The notes under the pieces: generated by a model
The model's database searches: none
Seen by the model: only the letters and a program-made list of their open reading frames with translations
What the model was told of the DNA's origin: nothing
Shown here: positions 3,869 through 13,346 of the stretch, piece by piece
Layout of the letters: each line of letters opens with the position of its first letter
Numbering within the stretch: position 1 is the first letter of the stretch
From: Escherichia phage P817
Sequence record: MZ826699.1
Length of the DNA stretch: 50,751 nucleotides
Direction: 5' to 3' (one strand)
Made by a program: the position numbers and the translations under genes

Positions 3869-4112
3869 TTCTGCTTCCTCGTTCGTTTCGATGGGGTAAC
3901 TATACAGCTACCCCGATTATGAGTTTTAACAAAAAGTGCTATCGTTGGTGATTTCGTGCAATCTTTTTCAACGCCAACCATATTTTAAAGCTGAAAATTT
4001 CAGGTTTTGTGAATCGTCGCTTCCCGTACTGTCGGCAAAGGCGGCGAACTCGTCGCTTATCAATCCACAGGTCAGTAATTATCTTTTCTGATTTGATTAG
4101 CTTCATGACTAT

Positions 4113-4272: not shown

Positions 4273-4429
4273 AAGCACCCCTTTTGTTTTCAGATTGTGG
4301 CGGTAGAGCTGCATAACATGCCCATTGTGATGATTGCTTGATGGATACTCTTTCATATCGCTTTCCTCTCGTTTGGTGTGAACTAACTATAACAAAACCC
4401 GCCGGAGCGGGTTTAGCAATTCGTGCTAT

Positions 4430-5714: not shown

Positions 5715-5786
5715 TTTTAACTTCCTTTCGTGTGGTTGGTGTGGGGATTATACCAGTCAGGATGAATCCCCTTTTAACAAAAAGTG

Positions 5787-6590
5787 CTATTTGATATAGA
5801 ACTGAGCCACTACGCCACCATCAGGATTTGTGATTGCGTATGCGTCACCGATCGTTGCCTTGGCATTCATAACCTTACCAATTCTCCTGGCATTCCAGCG
5901 ATAATCTCCTTTTAAATCAGAGACGAATGCATCTTGTACGATATTAATAATGCTCGGCTCACACCCTGTCTCACATTCATCAACTTCATACTCATACTCA
6001 CAACCGTTGATAAACATATTTCCGTTAACATGGTAGCAAACAGCCACCTTGCGATCGCGTGCTGATTCACATTCACCAACCGCCCATACGTGATTATCGC
6101 TATAACCGTAACCGCAGCTTCGTGGTTCCATTTTCGCGGTTGACATGTTAAGCGCCTTGCCTTCACCGAAATTGCTACCGAAAGTGAACTTGGCATCTTT
6201 CGTCAGGTAATCAAACTTTGCGCCATCATCTACGACGGTTTTCCCTGGGCCAGCCGCAAGCTCATTCACGAATGCATCGACAGTGCTGTGACACGGATCG
6301 CCATTGTACTTAGGCAAATCCTTGAACAATTGCTCACATGCTTCGTGCACCAGCTTACCTACAGCTTCTTTGATTGCCTGCTCAACATGGTCAGCGATAA
6401 TCGACGGTGCAGAAATTTGATGTTTTTGAGTCGATTCTAAGGCCTTTAAACGTGCCTGTAAGGAATCGATTTCTTTTTTATGCATTGCGTAGGATACCCA
6501 CGCTCCATCGTCGCAGGATTGCATTCCGACGCCGTGAATATTGACGCTGGTTGGCACTGACACAGGGATATAACGGTTGATGCTGTTCAT
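5787..6590 (-). CDS. hypothetical Cys-rich protein
   Basis: 267-aa ORF; C-terminal half rich in Cys/Glu/Tyr (CEYEYEVDECETGCEP). Confidence 0.5.
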   Translation of the reverse strand: MNSINRYIPVSVPTSVNIHGVGMQSCDDGAWVSYAMHKKEIDSLQARLKALESTQKHQISAPSIIADHVEQAIKEAVGKLVHEACEQLFKDLPKYNGDPCHSTVDAFVNELAAGPGKTVVDDGAKFDYLTKDAKFTFGSNFGEGKALNMSTAKMEPRSCGYGYSDNHVWAVGECESARDRKVAVCYHVNGNMFINGCEYEYEVDECETGCEPSIINIVQDAFVSDLKGDYRWNARRIGKVMNAKATIGDAYAITNPDGGVVAQFYIK

Positions 6591-6671
6591 ATGTGATTCC
6601 TCAGTTGGTTTGTGTTCACTTGACAGGAGACACTATAGCTAATGTCTCCGAGCAAGTTTTAACAAAAAGTG

Positions 6672-6890
6672 CTATTCGATGAATCCGGCGCGAATTGCAG
6701 TTTCAAGTGTGACATACTGCTTAGCCGTCAGTGATGAGTGATAGGTAAAGATGCCAGCCTGGATACCCTTTACCAACTGATCCTGCGTAATGCCTGAGAT
6801 ATTAATAATCCCGTATCCGCCACCAGTGCGCAGGACCACATCGCCGACCGCACAAAATTCAATGCCTTTACTGTTAGTGTAGACTTGCAT
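6672..6890 (-). CDS. hypothetical protein
   Basis: 72 aa; stop codon overlaps intergenic box. Confidence 0.4.
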   Translation of the reverse strand: MQVYTNSKGIEFCAVGDVVLRTGGGYGIINISGITQDQLVKGIQAGIFTYHSSLTAKQYVTLETAIRAGFIE

Positions 6891-7642: not shown

Positions 7643-7717
7643 TTCCTCTTATTGGTTGACTTTGCTTCAATAAGGCCACTATATCAAATGGCCTTGCGGA
7701 AGGTTTAACAAAAAGTG

Positions 7718-7906
7718 CTATTCGAATTTTTCGTTGTGGTGAATGACCTCAGCCACGTAAATCTTTCTCAAGAACCACTCCTGCGTTCCAGTGGAAGTAA
7801 TCTTGTGCATCTTCCATACCTGGTGCCAGGGCAGATACTCAATATCCTCAGCCAGTGCCGTGAACGCTTTGCCGCAGTGAGTGTAAATCGTGGTGTAGTT
7901 AGTCAT
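7718..7906 (-). CDS. hypothetical protein
   Basis: 62-aa ORF preceded by conserved leader GGTATACTTCTTTCATACCAAC. Confidence 0.4.
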   Translation of the reverse strand: MTNYTTIYTHCGKAFTALAEDIEYLPWHQVWKMHKITSTGTQEWFLRKIYVAEVIHHNEKFE

Positions 7907-8069
7907 TTAGTATCTCCCTTGTTGGTATGAAAGAAGTATACCAGTCAGGGAGAATATCGTTTTAGCAATTCGTGCTATTTGACCACAACTAGGAAGATTA
8001 TCACCAGGAACAGAAGCGCCCAGGATAACCCAACAAGAAGCAATTGCAGCACGTCAACTAATTTGAACT

Positions 8070-8387
8070 TCATAGCAGTTCAACCTCATCCTCTGCAAAT
8101 GGCCAGTCGCCTGGTGCCATTCCTTTCTTGCTGAGCGCCGGAAGGAAATCAGCGTCAACCATGTATATCGTACCCTCATCACCTTCTTCATATTTCCAGG
8201 CCATCGCCACTACTGGCAGCTTGCTTTTATCAACGCCCTGATACGGAGACTTGATAATGCGAATCTTAATCATTTCTTCATTGTTCATTGTGGCGCTCCA
8301 TGTAGTCAGCCATTTTGATAAGGTGCTCACCCATTGCTCGGACAGTCGCCGGATCTTGCATTGGGAATGCTCCAGAGTCGTCGTCAA
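8070..8387 (-). CDS. hypothetical protein (true start possibly MNNEEM near 8287)
   Basis: 105-aa ORF overlapping 8278..8484. Confidence 0.3.
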   Translation of the reverse strand: MTTTLEHSQCKIRRLSEQWVSTLSKWLTTWSATMNNEEMIKIRIIKSPYQGVDKSKLPVVAMAWKYEEGDEGTIYMVDADFLPALSKKGMAPGDWPFAEDEVELL

Positions 8388-8484
8388 TAACGATTTCGAC
8401 AGTGACGTTATCGCTATTGGTCATCGTGTCAATCCAGCAATCGTCATCGTCCATATCCTGGAAGCGCTTGCGATCGGTAATCAT
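8278..8484 (-). CDS. hypothetical acidic protein
   Basis: 68 aa, Asp-rich. Confidence 0.35.
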   Translation of the reverse strand: MITDRKRFQDMDDDDCWIDTMTNSDNVTVEIVIDDDSGAFPMQDPATVRAMGEHLIKMADYMERHNEQ

Positions 8485-8711
8485 AAAACCCCCTTCTCAG
8501 CGCGGTGGGCCGATTCCATCAGGTGACACGCCAGTTGGCGCGCCTGGTCTGGCGTGTACACCATGTAACTTGATGCGTCAACATACTCTTCAGGATTGAA
8601 GTCAACGCACACCTTGAATGCAAAACCCTGGGCGCTGCTATGCAGTTTCTTTACCATTACCTCGGCCTGTTCGCCTGAGTCGTCAGCGATGCGTACGGCG
8701 GTTGTGCTCAT
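8481..8711 (-). CDS. small protein, paralog family member A
   Basis: 76 aa; shares VRIxD..QAEV..DF(N/D)PE(E/G)Y..Y(T/S)PD.AR.LA..AEK with ORF 9439..9651. Confidence 0.45.
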   Translation of the reverse strand: MSTTAVRIADDSGEQAEVMVKKLHSSAQGFAFKVCVDFNPEEYVDASSYMVYTPDQARQLACHLMESAHRAEKGVL

Positions 8712-8790
8712 AAATTACCCCTTAGTTGATTGTTTCACTTCAATGAGTGCACTATAGCAAATGCACTCACGGCAGTTTTAACAAAAAGTG

Positions 8791-9081
8791 CTATCGTTCA
8801 TCTTCTCTGGAGCATCCCTTGCCGCAACCATGGCGACCAACTTCCACGATCCCGACACCGCTTAAGCCGATGTATTCCTGACCAGTGTCCTTATCGGTGA
8901 TGACGTATATCGCTCTGACGTTCTCATATGCCAGTTCATCCCTGAACTCCTGAATCTTCACAACCTGGACGCGATCGCTGACATTCACTGGCATCTTCTG
9001 CCGAGCTTCTGAATCTACACGGGTGCTTCCGAAATCACATCCAGCCAGAGCCAGTGCTGCTAATAAAATTAGTTTCTTCAT
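8791..9081 (-). CDS. putative lipoprotein
   Basis: Signal peptide plus lipobox MKKLILLAALALAGC. Confidence 0.5.
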   Translation of the reverse strand: MKKLILLAALALAGCDFGSTRVDSEARQKMPVNVSDRVQVVKIQEFRDELAYENVRAIYVITDKDTGQEYIGLSGVGIVEVGRHGCGKGCSREDER

Positions 9082-9278
9082 TCGATAATCCTCACTACTT
9101 TCTCTTTGCGATGCGGTGCGCCGGACTTATGCAGCCAGTAGCGAGCCTGGGAAAGCTGGCTTGCATGGGACACTGTAACCCACCAGAACAAAGCCACCCG
9201 TTTTTGGACGGCATACCACTTGACCGGATGACCGAAGGCGTTTGTTGTTTCAATCAATGTGATCCTGAATTTACTCAT
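9078..9278 (-). CDS. hypothetical protein
   Basis: 66-aa ORF. Confidence 0.3.
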   Translation of the reverse strand: MSKFRITLIETTNAFGHPVKWYAVQKRVALFWWVTVSHASQLSQARYWLHKSGAPHRKEKVVRIIE

Positions 9279-9438
9279 CCGAAATTGTACTCCTTAATTT
9301 TCTTTGCCGCTCTCATTATGTCATCCAGGCACATTTTATCATCAAGCAAGTCAGCTAACGCCGCTCCGTCATCACTGCCTGACTCTAGAATCTCGGCGAT
9401 CCTGATTATCGAGATGCACTCATCGTGAGTTAGCTTAT

Positions 9439-9651
9439 TCATAACTTCTCTGCCTCTTCCGCTGCCAGGATAAGCGCCGCAGCTAATTTGCGGGCCGCAT
9501 CAGGTGAGTATTGCATCAGTGTTTGGCAATCTGCGTAACCCTCAGGATCGAAGTCCAGGTTGACAACATTACCGCGAACTGTTCTCATCGTTACACTGAC
9601 CTCAGCTTGGTCAAAGTTAACATCATCAATACGTACAGTTTCCATAATCAT
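9439..9651 (-). CDS. small protein, paralog family member B
   Basis: 70 aa; paralog of 8481..8711. Confidence 0.45.
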   Translation of the reverse strand: MIMETVRIDDVNFDQAEVSVTMRTVRGNVVNLDFDPEGYADCQTLMQYSPDAARKLAAALILAAEEAEKL

Positions 9652-9715
9652 TTCCTCTTCGTTGTTGATAGGGTAATCATAGCTGACTACCCGATTTATT
9701 GTTTAGCAATTCGTG

Positions 9716-10279
9716 CTATTCACCGTTCAGGAGTGATTTAGCTTTCCGATAAAACTCGACAGCCTTTCTGACCTCATCTGCATCATAGCCATGAATCATG
9801 TCTGAGCTTGCCTGCAATTTGCTATGAGATTTGCGCTCAACCGATCTCCATGGGTCGCACCACTTGTGAATGTCTCTCCCATACATGCCCACCAGGTATG
9901 GATGTGCATATATCTTGTCACCAATAAGGCAAATGATTCCCGCGTCCTGTAGTGATGGTAGGATGTTGTCAATCAGGTTATTCATTACTCCATTACGCTC
10001 GACGAACGGCTGGACCTTTCTGATCGCCTCATATGTTGAGCGAACTCCCACAACGCCTTTTCCATTTGTCGCTTGCTTCCAGATCTTTTCAACCACGACG
10101 CATTGTTCACGATTTAGGTTTGCGCGACGCATAACTTCCACTTCGCACCAGTACTTTTGTGACTGTCGGTATCCGTTAGCATTGATTGCAACTCGTAGTG
10201 GTTCAAGCCCATCTTCCGTAGCAATCTCCATAATCTGCTCATCCGTCAATTTGTCCTCGTTGAAGTCAAACATCCCCAT
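9716..10279 (-). CDS. domain-deleted paralog of the 527-aa P-loop protein (N- and C-terminal segments only)
   Basis: MFDFNEDKL..LRVAINANGYRQSQ and NGKGVVGVRS.YEA.RKV.PF...CLIGDKIY shared with ORF 13772..15355; central P-loop region absent. Confidence 0.55.
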   Translation of the reverse strand: MGMFDFNEDKLTDEQIMEIATEDGLEPLRVAINANGYRQSQKYWCEVEVMRRANLNREQCVVVEKIWKQATNGKGVVGVRSTYEAIRKVQPFVERNGVMNNLIDNILPSLQDAGIICLIGDKIYAHPYLVGMYGRDIHKWCDPWRSVERKSHSKLQASSDMIHGYDADEVRKAVEFYRKAKSLLNGE

Positions 10280-10800
10280 TATTTTGTCTCCTTAATCATT
10301 TCCTGGTACATTTTGATTGCCTTGATGGCCCCTGTAATCTCATCGCCTTCAAACTCAGTCACGGATGGCATCAGCTTGAGTATTTTGACCTTAAAGTCGC
10401 TCACAGCCTTCTCTGCAATCTGGCAGTTTGCCTTCACTCGCTTTCCTGTCTGGATTGCGCCATCAACCAAAGACAGATAAGCACACCGAACCTCGACGTC
10501 ATCACCGAAATCACCATCCTTAATTGAAAGTTTTGCACGAACGTTTGCCTCCTGTATCTCTGGCATCCTGGCTACCGTATTGGCGACATATGACGCCTTC
10601 AGCTTTGCCATACTGTACTTGCCACCTACATCCAGATCCTCACGACTTATGCCTCCTATATCACTAGATGTGAGGCCGTAAACCTGGCGAGCTATTAGAT
10701 GGATTGGGACGTGGTAGCTGCGGTTCTCGGACTTGAGCGCTTGCTCCGCCATGTAGCGGACGACATCGCCCAGGCTTACGCGTTGATTATGATTTGACAT
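10279..10800 (-). CDS. hypothetical protein (first gene of leftward early operon)
   Basis: 173-aa ORF adjacent to AT-rich divergent control region. Confidence 0.5.
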   Translation of the reverse strand: MSNHNQRVSLGDVVRYMAEQALKSENRSYHVPIHLIARQVYGLTSSDIGGISREDLDVGGKYSMAKLKASYVANTVARMPEIQEANVRAKLSIKDGDFGDDVEVRCAYLSLVDGAIQTGKRVKANCQIAEKAVSDFKVKILKLMPSVTEFEGDEITGAIKAIKMYQEMIKETK

Positions 10801-11519
10801 AGATATTACTCCTGATTGGTGGTCTTCGTTAAGATGGGTGCAATACTACCAGCGTGGTTACATGTTATCAAGTGTTATTGATGCAAATGTTCGACTTAGT
10901 TACGTTTTGCGACCTCTCGCCCCAGATATAGCTCAATGTAAAGTCTGCGTATAGTTTGTAGATAAGGATTTTTAGCAAATGGGCCCCTACATGACCTTTT
11001 ATTCCTACAATGTCGTCATATTCCTACAGGTGTAGGAAAATATCATAGAAAACAATCGCAATATCACATATCCACTATCTACATTATCTACATATATATA
11101 TATTAATAATAATAATATAGATAAATGGTTATTATATAAGGATATTTTAATGTAACCATGGCGTAATTCTGCGTGATAAGCGTACACGATTCCTACGGTG
11201 GGCTTCTTCATCTACACGGCGTAACTTTTATAACGCGTATGCGCTAGAAACGTGTGGCGGGAAAATCCTACCAGGCGATCAGGGGATCAGACTTCACCCC
11301 ATCATTCCCCCCATCAATGAATCATTGCTCAATTCGCAACAATCGAAAACATCATTGCATCGGAAGCAATATTGCTGTATGTGCAATAGTCATGATAATC
11401 ATTGCAATAGCTGCAACAATCCATAAATCCAACGAATGGCACTTTTTTCTAATGACCGATCAGTTGTGATTCGCTATTGTTACTCCATCGAAACGAGTGA
11501 AGAGAACTGGAGAAAATAA
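10801..11519. promoter_or_regulatory. AT-rich divergent control region with palindrome TTCCTACAGGTGTAGGAA, direct repeats (ATTCCTACA, ATCTACAT, ATCATTGC x3); candidate early promoters or origin
   Basis: Non-coding, flanked by divergent genes; about 70 bp shares about 80% identity with 30710..30805. Confidence 0.45.
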
Positions 11520-11699
11520 ATGAGCACTGTTAAAATTCATTGCTACGTCGTGATGGCTGAGCCACGCGAGCCGGAATATGACACTCAGGTGCACTGCGTG
11601 TGCCTCAGTGAGCAGATGGCAGAGCAGGTTTGCGAGAAGATGAACGCAACCGACAAGTACAACCAGTACGACTACTACGAAACGGAGCTACAGAAATGA
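11520..11699 (+). CDS. hypothetical small protein (59 aa)
   Basis: Read by eye: RBS GGAGAAAATAA then ATG; ATGA overlap with next ORF. Confidence 0.35.
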   Translation: MSTVKIHCYVVMAEPREPEYDTQVHCVCLSEQMAEQVCEKMNATDKYNQYDYYETELQK

Positions 11700-12172: not shown

Positions 12173-12352
12173 ATGGGGAATCGGTTCAGCAAAAGACGGC
12201 TGTTACGCAATGGTGATATTGCCAGGGTTCAGCAAAATGCTGCTGTTGCGTTCGGTAAAGCGGCACGTCAGAACCTGACTGGTTATCAGCCATGCATAAC
12301 GCCGACGCCGTTTTACGTGCATAAGCAGCGACCACCAAAAAGCCGTAAATAG
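12173..12352 (+). CDS. hypothetical basic protein
   Basis: In frame of track ORF 11996..12352; stop TAG lies in intergenic box. Confidence 0.25.
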   Translation: MGNRFSKRRLLRNGDIARVQQNAAVAFGKAARQNLTGYQPCITPTPFYVHKQRPPKSRK

Positions 12353-12430
12353 CACGAATTGCTAAACGAAGCCTCACGGATTGAGGCATAATAATTTCAT
12401 CGAAACGAAGTACACAAAGAGGAAGTAAAA

Positions 12431-13122: not shown

Positions 13123-13283
13123 TGCTCAAGCCATCTGAGATAAACTACTTCGATCTTGAAGTCATTAGTGCCTATAGCGGAAAGGGATGGCCATGCGGTG
13201 ATTTGTTTAACGAGGATTTGCTTGAGAGCCATGAAACAATGCTCAAAGCGATAGAGAAAGCACGAAATAGCACGAATTGCTAA
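13122..13283 (+). CDS. hypothetical small protein (53 aa)
   Basis: Read by eye; ATGA overlap with previous ORF; stop inside intergenic box. Confidence 0.3.
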   Translation: MLKPSEINYFDLEVISAYSGKGWPCGDLFNEDLLESHETMLKAIEKARNSTNC

Positions 13284-13346
13284 AGCCCTTCGGGGCTTTT
13301 CCTGTATATTGATCTCATCGAAACGAAACACAAAAAGGCAAACAAA

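Follow-up and report, generated by a model that had tools for sequence, protein, structure and literature searches.

Two paralogous small acidic genes of Escherichia phage P817 belong to a recombining accessory family of functionally uncharacterised proteins

The closest described counterpart of the genes analysed here is Gp4.5 of phage T7, a protein reported to inhibit the Lon protease by binding it, so that activation of the sanaTA abortive-infection system is blocked; more recently, Gp4.5 has been proposed to counter other systems as well (PMC7438911, PMC11482910, PMC11323111). Among catalogued protein groups, phrog_13316 (PHROGs v4), which carries no functional annotation, does not differ from the family described below; it is the family itself. 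By predicted fold, a further point of comparison is the PC4/Sub1, Pur-alpha and YdbC fold of ssDNA-binding transcriptional regulators, to which the PC4-like protein of phage T5 (PDB 4bg7) belongs.

The window analysed here is the whole 50,751 nt sequence of Escherichia phage P817 (MZ826699.1), a T1-like coliphage and Nouzillyvirus-like member of the Drexlerviridae. Two of its small ORFs, called A and B below (Table 1), are each equipped with a Shine–Dalgarno sequence, and comparison with orthologues gave dN/dS values of 0.21-0.50 for A and 0.07-0.22 for B, low enough to identify both as protein-coding genes under purifying selection. An alternative start of B at ATG 9651 (9439..9651) would give a product of 70 aa. 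The motif GAGGA lies 7 nt upstream of ATG 9645 but 1 nt from ATG 9651, and the 68 aa form is that of the GenBank product and of all orthologues; given this ribosome-binding-site spacing and these product lengths, ATG 9645 is most likely the real start.

Table 1. Genes and upstream elements at the A/B locus, and chimeric family members in related contigs. Positions are those of the window unless a contig is named.
Feature	Position	Strand	Description
ORF A	8481..8711	minus	76 aa, pI 5.15, acidic; A-type member; GenBank UAV84716.1 (hypothetical protein)
ORF B	9439..9645	minus	68 aa from ATG 9645 (most likely start), pI 4.19; B-type member; GenBank UAV84720.1 (hypothetical protein)
68-aa gene	8278..8484	minus	directly after A, ATGA overlap (translationally coupled)
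96-aa predicted lipoprotein gene	8791..9081	minus	between B and A; signal peptide with LAGC lipobox
66-aa gene	9078..9278	minus	between B and A; unrelated to A/B
55-aa gene	9275..9442	minus	between B and A; unrelated to A/B; acidic, without family match
Box ATAGCACTTTTTGTTAAA	8777..8794	minus	upstream of A; stop codon of the lipoprotein gene before it lies within the box (TAG, 8793..8791)
Box ATAGCACGAATTGCTAAA	9702..9719	minus	upstream of B; palindrome TAGCA-N5-TGCTA; stop codon of the 187-aa gene before it lies within the box (TAG, 9718..9716)
Hairpin GAGTGCA/TGCACTC	8745..8768	minus	upstream of A; DNA fold z = -2.4; -10-like TGcTATAGT (hexamer 8756..8751) in loop and 3' arm
Hairpin GGGTAGTCA/TGATTACCC	9671..9692	minus	upstream of B; DNA fold z = -3.35; contains -10-like TATGAT (9681..9676)
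Chimera P0016	L003 1855-2067		B head and A tail; at A's usual place, the three genes between B and A absent
Chimera P0020	L017 2516-2725		B head and A tail; like P0016, intervening genes absent
Chimera P0011	L016 4001-4216		C head and A tail; at A's place, genes between the C and A parents missing

The original prediction had singled out A and B as paralogues, and formal alignment bore this out, with 40% identity over 57 aa by BLASTP (E 8e-9) and 44% identity in a global MAFFT alignment. The motifs that had been quoted as common to the two proteins (VRI.D, QAEV.V, DF(N/D)PE, Y(T/S)PD.AR.LA and AEK) are all visible in the alignment. When A and B were compared by phmmer with all 893 stop-to-stop window ORFs of at least 30 aa, the sole match of each was the other (E 3.5e-10 and 1.3e-10), the next-best match having E > 1. 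Likewise, an HMM search of all six-frame window ORFs found no further paralogue at HMMER sensitivity. At the DNA level, A and B share only 50% identity, and the duplication must therefore be old.

The two genes had also been described as tandem. This is wrong for P817, where the three unrelated genes listed in Table 1 separate B from A, although other paralogues of the family are directly tandem in related phages. A and B belong to a series of small genes flanked by the replication-module genes on one side and the polynucleotide kinase gene on the other, and the 4-kb region around them matches Nouzillyvirus coliphages (Drexlerviridae) at 84-95% DNA identity, in mosaic pieces. In the order of transcription, a DUF7174 gene and a 187-aa gene are followed by the B unit, made up of box and hairpin, B, the 55-aa gene, the 66-aa gene and the 96-aa lipoprotein gene, and then by the A unit, made up of box and hairpin, A, the 68-aa gene and two more genes, of 72 and then 32 aa; similar units come after it. 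A and B are each the first cistron behind their own box, hairpin and -10-like element, and the ATGA stop/start overlap that joins A to the 68-aa gene also joins B to the 55-aa gene.

Matches to phrog_13316 extend over residues 6-74 of A (E 5.1e-5) and residues 3-69 of B (E 7.2e-11), and all 28 aligned family members match this group over nearly the full profile length (best E 1e-15). Sequence searches of Pfam, NCBIfam and the PDB with the family returned nothing above threshold; matches to HypC, BssS, EutQ and AZUL were short and non-significant and were set aside. Of 50,697 phage records, 26 had an A-like gene and 73 a B-like gene by tblastn, compared with the 262 records that share DNA with the 4-kb region. 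Most of these matches come from E. coli Drexlerviridae, to which the family is mainly restricted; Vequintavirinae coliphages of the rV5-like group and a Yersinia phage are among the others, and the rV5-like coliphages, like a few further phages, carry a single copy.

Among 5.8 billion protein clusters, 314 belonged to the family, and the 120 of these that were listed are 66-88 aa long, lack a Pfam domain and are ‘hypothetical’ wherever they are named. An exhaustive HMM search of 1.84 billion representatives produced only 59 matches (E <= 1e-3), and a scan of IMG/VR viral contigs only five loci. The long repeat proteins P0138, P0150 and P0157, which also surfaced in the exhaustive search, were rejected, their matches seeming to reflect the composition of short V.(I/L)DF.PE-like repeats. 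A tblastn search from the divergent members P0155 and P0175 towards actinophage proteins found nothing, the low-complexity filter probably masking the alanine-rich helix.

Copy number, counted by running the family HMM over the fetched loci, ranged from one to four in ten related phage genomes or contigs. Three copies are present in vB_EcoM_50EP, GaoY1-9D, TH21 and the IMG/VR contig L005, 3-4 in PH1062 and four in CJ19; the P817 window has two (A and B), as do BUCT-XGG-1, where one is truncated, and Veterinaerplatzvirus, where the order is opposite, and P818 has one. The copies fall into orthologous types, of which A, B and C are the main ones and D and E are also seen, with about five N-terminal types and three C-terminal tail types overall. 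In relatives, a C-type copy directly follows B; the slot that it holds there (for example, L001 3894-4112) is filled in P817 by the 55-aa gene.

Variable copy number, multiple types, chimeras and patchy distribution together form the pattern expected of accessory genes. A and B are anciently diverged copies of one small acidic gene family of about 68-76 aa (median pI 4.66), and this is clearly a diversifying accessory family that stands directly behind promoter-like elements. The diversification that had been read into the pair is thus upheld by the one to four copies, the N-terminal types, the chimeras and the patchy distribution, although not by a tandem arrangement in P817.

The most direct view of how the family changes came from the metagenomic members, which pair N-terminal types with three alternative C-terminal tails, so that heads and tails recombine freely. 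Three chimeric genes could be placed in their genomic context (Table 1). In each, the YTPDQAR segment is the point at which sliding-window nucleotide identity changes over, from 80-95% with the B or C parent to 90-100% with the A parent. The 55-, 66- and 96-aa genes are all absent from the two contigs with a B–A chimera; the contig with the C–A chimera is without the 66- and 96-aa genes, and nothing in its C-bearing lineage corresponds to the 55-aa gene. The chimeras sit exactly where inter-copy genes are missing, from which it follows that the copies act as recombination points, and they can do so because the conserved segment that encodes YTPDQAR and the helix is common to them. These loci show directly that the paralogues are real substrates for homologous recombination, by which the accessory genes between them are removed or exchanged, and they provide a clear, sequence-resolved case of paralogues serving as recombination joints at which accessory genes are added or removed. 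In a separate metagenomic protein (P0128, 150 aa), a B-type C-terminal half is fused to the C-terminal portion of the 267-aa product of 5787..6590; this is either a recombination or deletion product, or an assembly artefact.

Structure prediction, which had been suggested as a check on the pair, was run for A with a 28-sequence alignment, and yielded an AlphaFold2 model with a mean pLDDT of 84.6. The model has strands at residues 2-9, 15-25, 29-37 and 49-52 and a helix at 54-73; in the predicted fold, a single alanine-rich helix at the C-terminus packs against an antiparallel sheet of four strands. Conservation is concentrated in strand 4 and the helix (M.Y(T/S)P.QAR.LA.AL..AA.EAE), and the invariant or near-invariant residues are R7, E17, V34, D37, P40, M50, Y52 and the alanine/leucine face of the helix. 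The hairpin of strands 2 and 3, the loop between strands 3 and 4 and the extreme C-terminal tail are variable. When the model was compared with BFVD by Foldseek, the best 50 matches were family members only.

The conserved C-terminal part recurs, weakly, in other catalogued families. The Pfam family DUF6907 (PF21848) is matched by 12 of the 28 members, at no more than 16.5 bits among those scanned individually (cutoff, 26), only from strand 3 to the helix and only over the C-terminal third of the profile. Below-threshold matches to phrog_2060, in 19 of the 28 members, likewise span strand 3 to the helix only. Neither DUF6907 nor phrog_2060 has a known function either. Longer proteins with a YTP.QAR.LAAAL helix were also among the matches of the exhaustive search.

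Of all the described proteins, T7 Gp4.5 alone offered a functional lead. Its Pfam family (PF17574, TA_inhibitor) gave sub-threshold matches for six of the 28 family members (best E 1.2e-4), and C-type members scanned individually scored 14.7-16.6 bits against a gathering threshold of 27; A and B themselves had no PF17574 match at E <= 1. By BLASTP, a C-type paralogue aligned to Gp4.5 with 37% identity over 54 aa (E 5e-5). In profile–profile comparison by hhalign, the 28-sequence profile reached a probability of 25% over 34 columns, and a wide 63-sequence profile reached 65-66% (E 6e-5, score 28.3) over 59 colinear columns. Against this score of 28.3 stand 12.1 for the reversed template, 9.4 +/- 2.1 for 100 column shuffles (maximum 16.6) and 6-12.6 for eleven unrelated families of small proteins from the same region. 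The AlphaFold model of Gp4.5 (pLDDT 85.6) shows the same strand-strand-strand-strand-helix order as A, with one extra helix.

Gp4.5 and the A/B family are both small, non-essential phage proteins, and both carry the strand 4-helix motif M.(Y/L)T.(D/E)QA..L..AL..AA. They differ in that Gp4.5 possesses an extra C-terminal helix and is basic (median pI of the Gp4.5 proteins, 9.9), whereas the A/B family is without this helix and acidic (about 4.7). Given this opposition of charge, a common target is unlikely. The residues that are invariant in Gp4.5 (D12, T13, D15, R19, H22, N24, Y34, R35, W36, H45, Q47, R48 and others) are not conserved in the A/B family, and Gp4.5 is encoded by one gene only, which lies between those for the T7 helicase/primase and the DNA polymerase, whereas the A/B family forms a multi-copy accessory array. 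No Gp4.5-like protein was found among the 59 matches of the exhaustive HMM search, as judged from all 59 lengths and from 49 of the sequences, and in Foldseek searches of BFVD from either model the other family was absent from the best 50 matches. Overall, Gp4.5 may be regarded as the closest functional analogue of A and B and a possible remote relative, and we have not filed A and B as members of its family. A 68-aa protein of PH1062 (L010 3983-4189) was considered as a bridge between the two families and rejected, as it shares only the helix motif with them.

The gene that directly follows A raises a related question of remote homology. With the wide family profile as its partner in hhalign, the 68-aa gene reached a probability of 84% over 62 colinear columns (E 7e-6), compared with no more than 0.8% for the eleven control families; against subsets of the family the signal was lost (no more than 3%). 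Possibly, judging by the match to the wide profile, the 68-aa gene encodes a very divergent third member of the same fold family. It showed no similarity to Gp4.5. A variant of this neighbour is labelled ‘DUF600’ in two GenBank relatives, a label that we discarded, the window's version having no Pfam match.

A box and a stem-loop had been noted before each gene, and both elements are indeed present at A and at B, but the box is not specific to the family. With up to two mismatches allowed, the 18-nt box ATAGCACNNNTTGNTAAA occurs 19 times in the genome, on both strands (13 perfect copies; 0.4 expected), and this excess marks it as a general promoter-like or operator-like element. Minus-strand copies lie at 3925-3942, 4412-4429, 5773-5790, 6658-6675, 7704-7721, 7961-7978, 8777-8794 and 9702-9719, plus-strand copies at 12349-12366 and 13267-13284, and there are more up to 45506. 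The box has two forms, of which the GAA form is the perfect palindrome TAGCA-N5-TGCTA. Before A and B alike, the regulatory element and the end of the upstream coding sequence are fused through TAG (8791-8794; 9716-9719).

Eight upstream regions can be aligned as ATAGCAC-N3-TTGNTAAA, a spacer of ~22 nt, a -10-like hexamer, a ribosome-binding site and ATG, the hexamer being TATAGT, TATGAT or TATAAT, often with an extended TG. The centre of the box falls ~41-42 nt upstream of the transcription start implied by the hexamer, a position more in keeping with an operator or an activator site than with a -35 element. The hairpins before A and B are of 7-9 bp and enclose the -10-like hexamer, with a stem sequence that differs by copy; hairpins around the hexamer are found at the same position on the minus strand at 8745-8768, 9671-9692, 7670-7695, 6625-6650 and 5742-5771. 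That pairing is kept while the stem sequence varies suggests selection for structure, in the DNA or in read-through RNA. A literature search on Drexlerviridae early promoters gave nothing relevant. From their position and these promoter-like motifs, we infer that A and B would be made early in infection.

All named matches to the family are ‘hypothetical protein’, and none is an annotated homologue that gives a function. A and B represent a well-supported paralogous ORFan family that is functionally uncharacterised, an ordinary accessory-gene family of a sort common in phage early regions, and a role in host takeover or anti-defence, as the original prediction had it, can only be inferred. We tentatively favour, as plausible yet somewhat short of probable, the reading that each copy is a small acidic protein-binding module aimed at a host factor and a functional analogue of Gp4.5, with a target that is probably not the same. 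The family would consist of dispensable accessory proteins, present from the start of infection, that probably bind a protein partner stoichiometrically, the likeliest partner being a host factor or a component of a defence system. Strand 4 and the conserved helix would act as the scaffold and, if the analogy to the PC4 and COMM folds holds, possibly as a dimer interface; target specificity would lie in the variable loops, and different paralogues would cover different targets or target variants. Binding and inhibition of Lon by Gp4.5 would be the parallel, and the family may be distantly related to it. A bolder extension, which we consider unlikely, would unite the A/B family, Gp4.5 and possibly the 68-aa gene in one ancient inhibitor superfamily with a four-strand-plus-helix fold; in the Drexlerviridae it would have grown into a combinatorial toolkit of one to four copies, with heads and tails that are variable and interchangeable, each copy neutralising a different host protease, ATPase or defence component, and the helix-coding segment would double as a recombination joint for inhibitors and cassettes. 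If the Gp4.5 link and the host-directed role are true, ‘hypothetical’ early genes of T1-like therapeutic coliphages would gain a function, and the family would offer a natural variant series for studying target change in small phage inhibitors.

Three other explanations were weighed against this host-directed role. The predicted fold, a four-stranded antiparallel sheet with a helix, is superposable on PC4 or PUR domains, and A and B could be ssDNA- or RNA-binding dimers of the PC4/Sub1/Pur-alpha kind that aid replication, recombination or transcription, like the PC4 homologue of phage T5. However, no PC4 or PUR Pfam match was found among the 28 members at E <= 1, and the basic and aromatic surface of a nucleic-acid-binding protein is not seen (net charge -4.2 for A, -7.5 for B and a median of -4.9 for the family). 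The acidity of the family makes such a role very unlikely. A phage-internal role, as partner, chaperone or regulator for the gene's own small operon or as a regulator of phage transcription, would accord with the place of each copy as first cistron and with its ATGA overlap with the next gene, and the 68-aa gene after A, if it is a distant relative, would fit a heterodimer. Yet the downstream neighbours differ among phages: the gene after a copy with an A tail is the 68-aa gene in some of them and a 59-aa gene in others, and after B comes the 55-aa gene in P817 but a C-, D- or E-type paralogue elsewhere. In addition, Pfam scans detected no DNA-binding motif, and we regard a phage-internal role as unlikely.

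The recombination data admit a different explanation, in which the proteins have little function of their own and the conserved C-terminal segment persists mainly as a homology ‘linker’ for cassette shuffling. Three independent chimeras with breakpoints in this segment and loss of the intervening genes speak for it, as does the free exchange of heads and tails among metagenomic members, but paralogous copies would be expected to recombine at the sequence they share in any case. Purifying selection acts across the whole length of the genes (dN/dS 0.07-0.5), the fold is confidently predicted and conserved residues occur throughout, beyond the putative linker (R7, E17, V34, D37 and P40); a mainly recombinational ‘linker’ role appears very unlikely, and the host-directed protein-binding module stays our tentatively favoured reading.

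Two features of the surrounding region deserve mention in their own right. Of the PHROG matches of the 96-aa lipoprotein encoded between B and A (8791-9081), the one to the Cor superinfection-exclusion protein is weak (E 1.6e-3), and the one to phrog_16585, which has no functional annotation, is stronger. Further along, an AT-rich, gene-poor divergent region at 10800-11520 separates the leftward from the rightward gene blocks and contains an overlapping palindrome (11076-11123) and direct repeats; this region may be a control region or origin.
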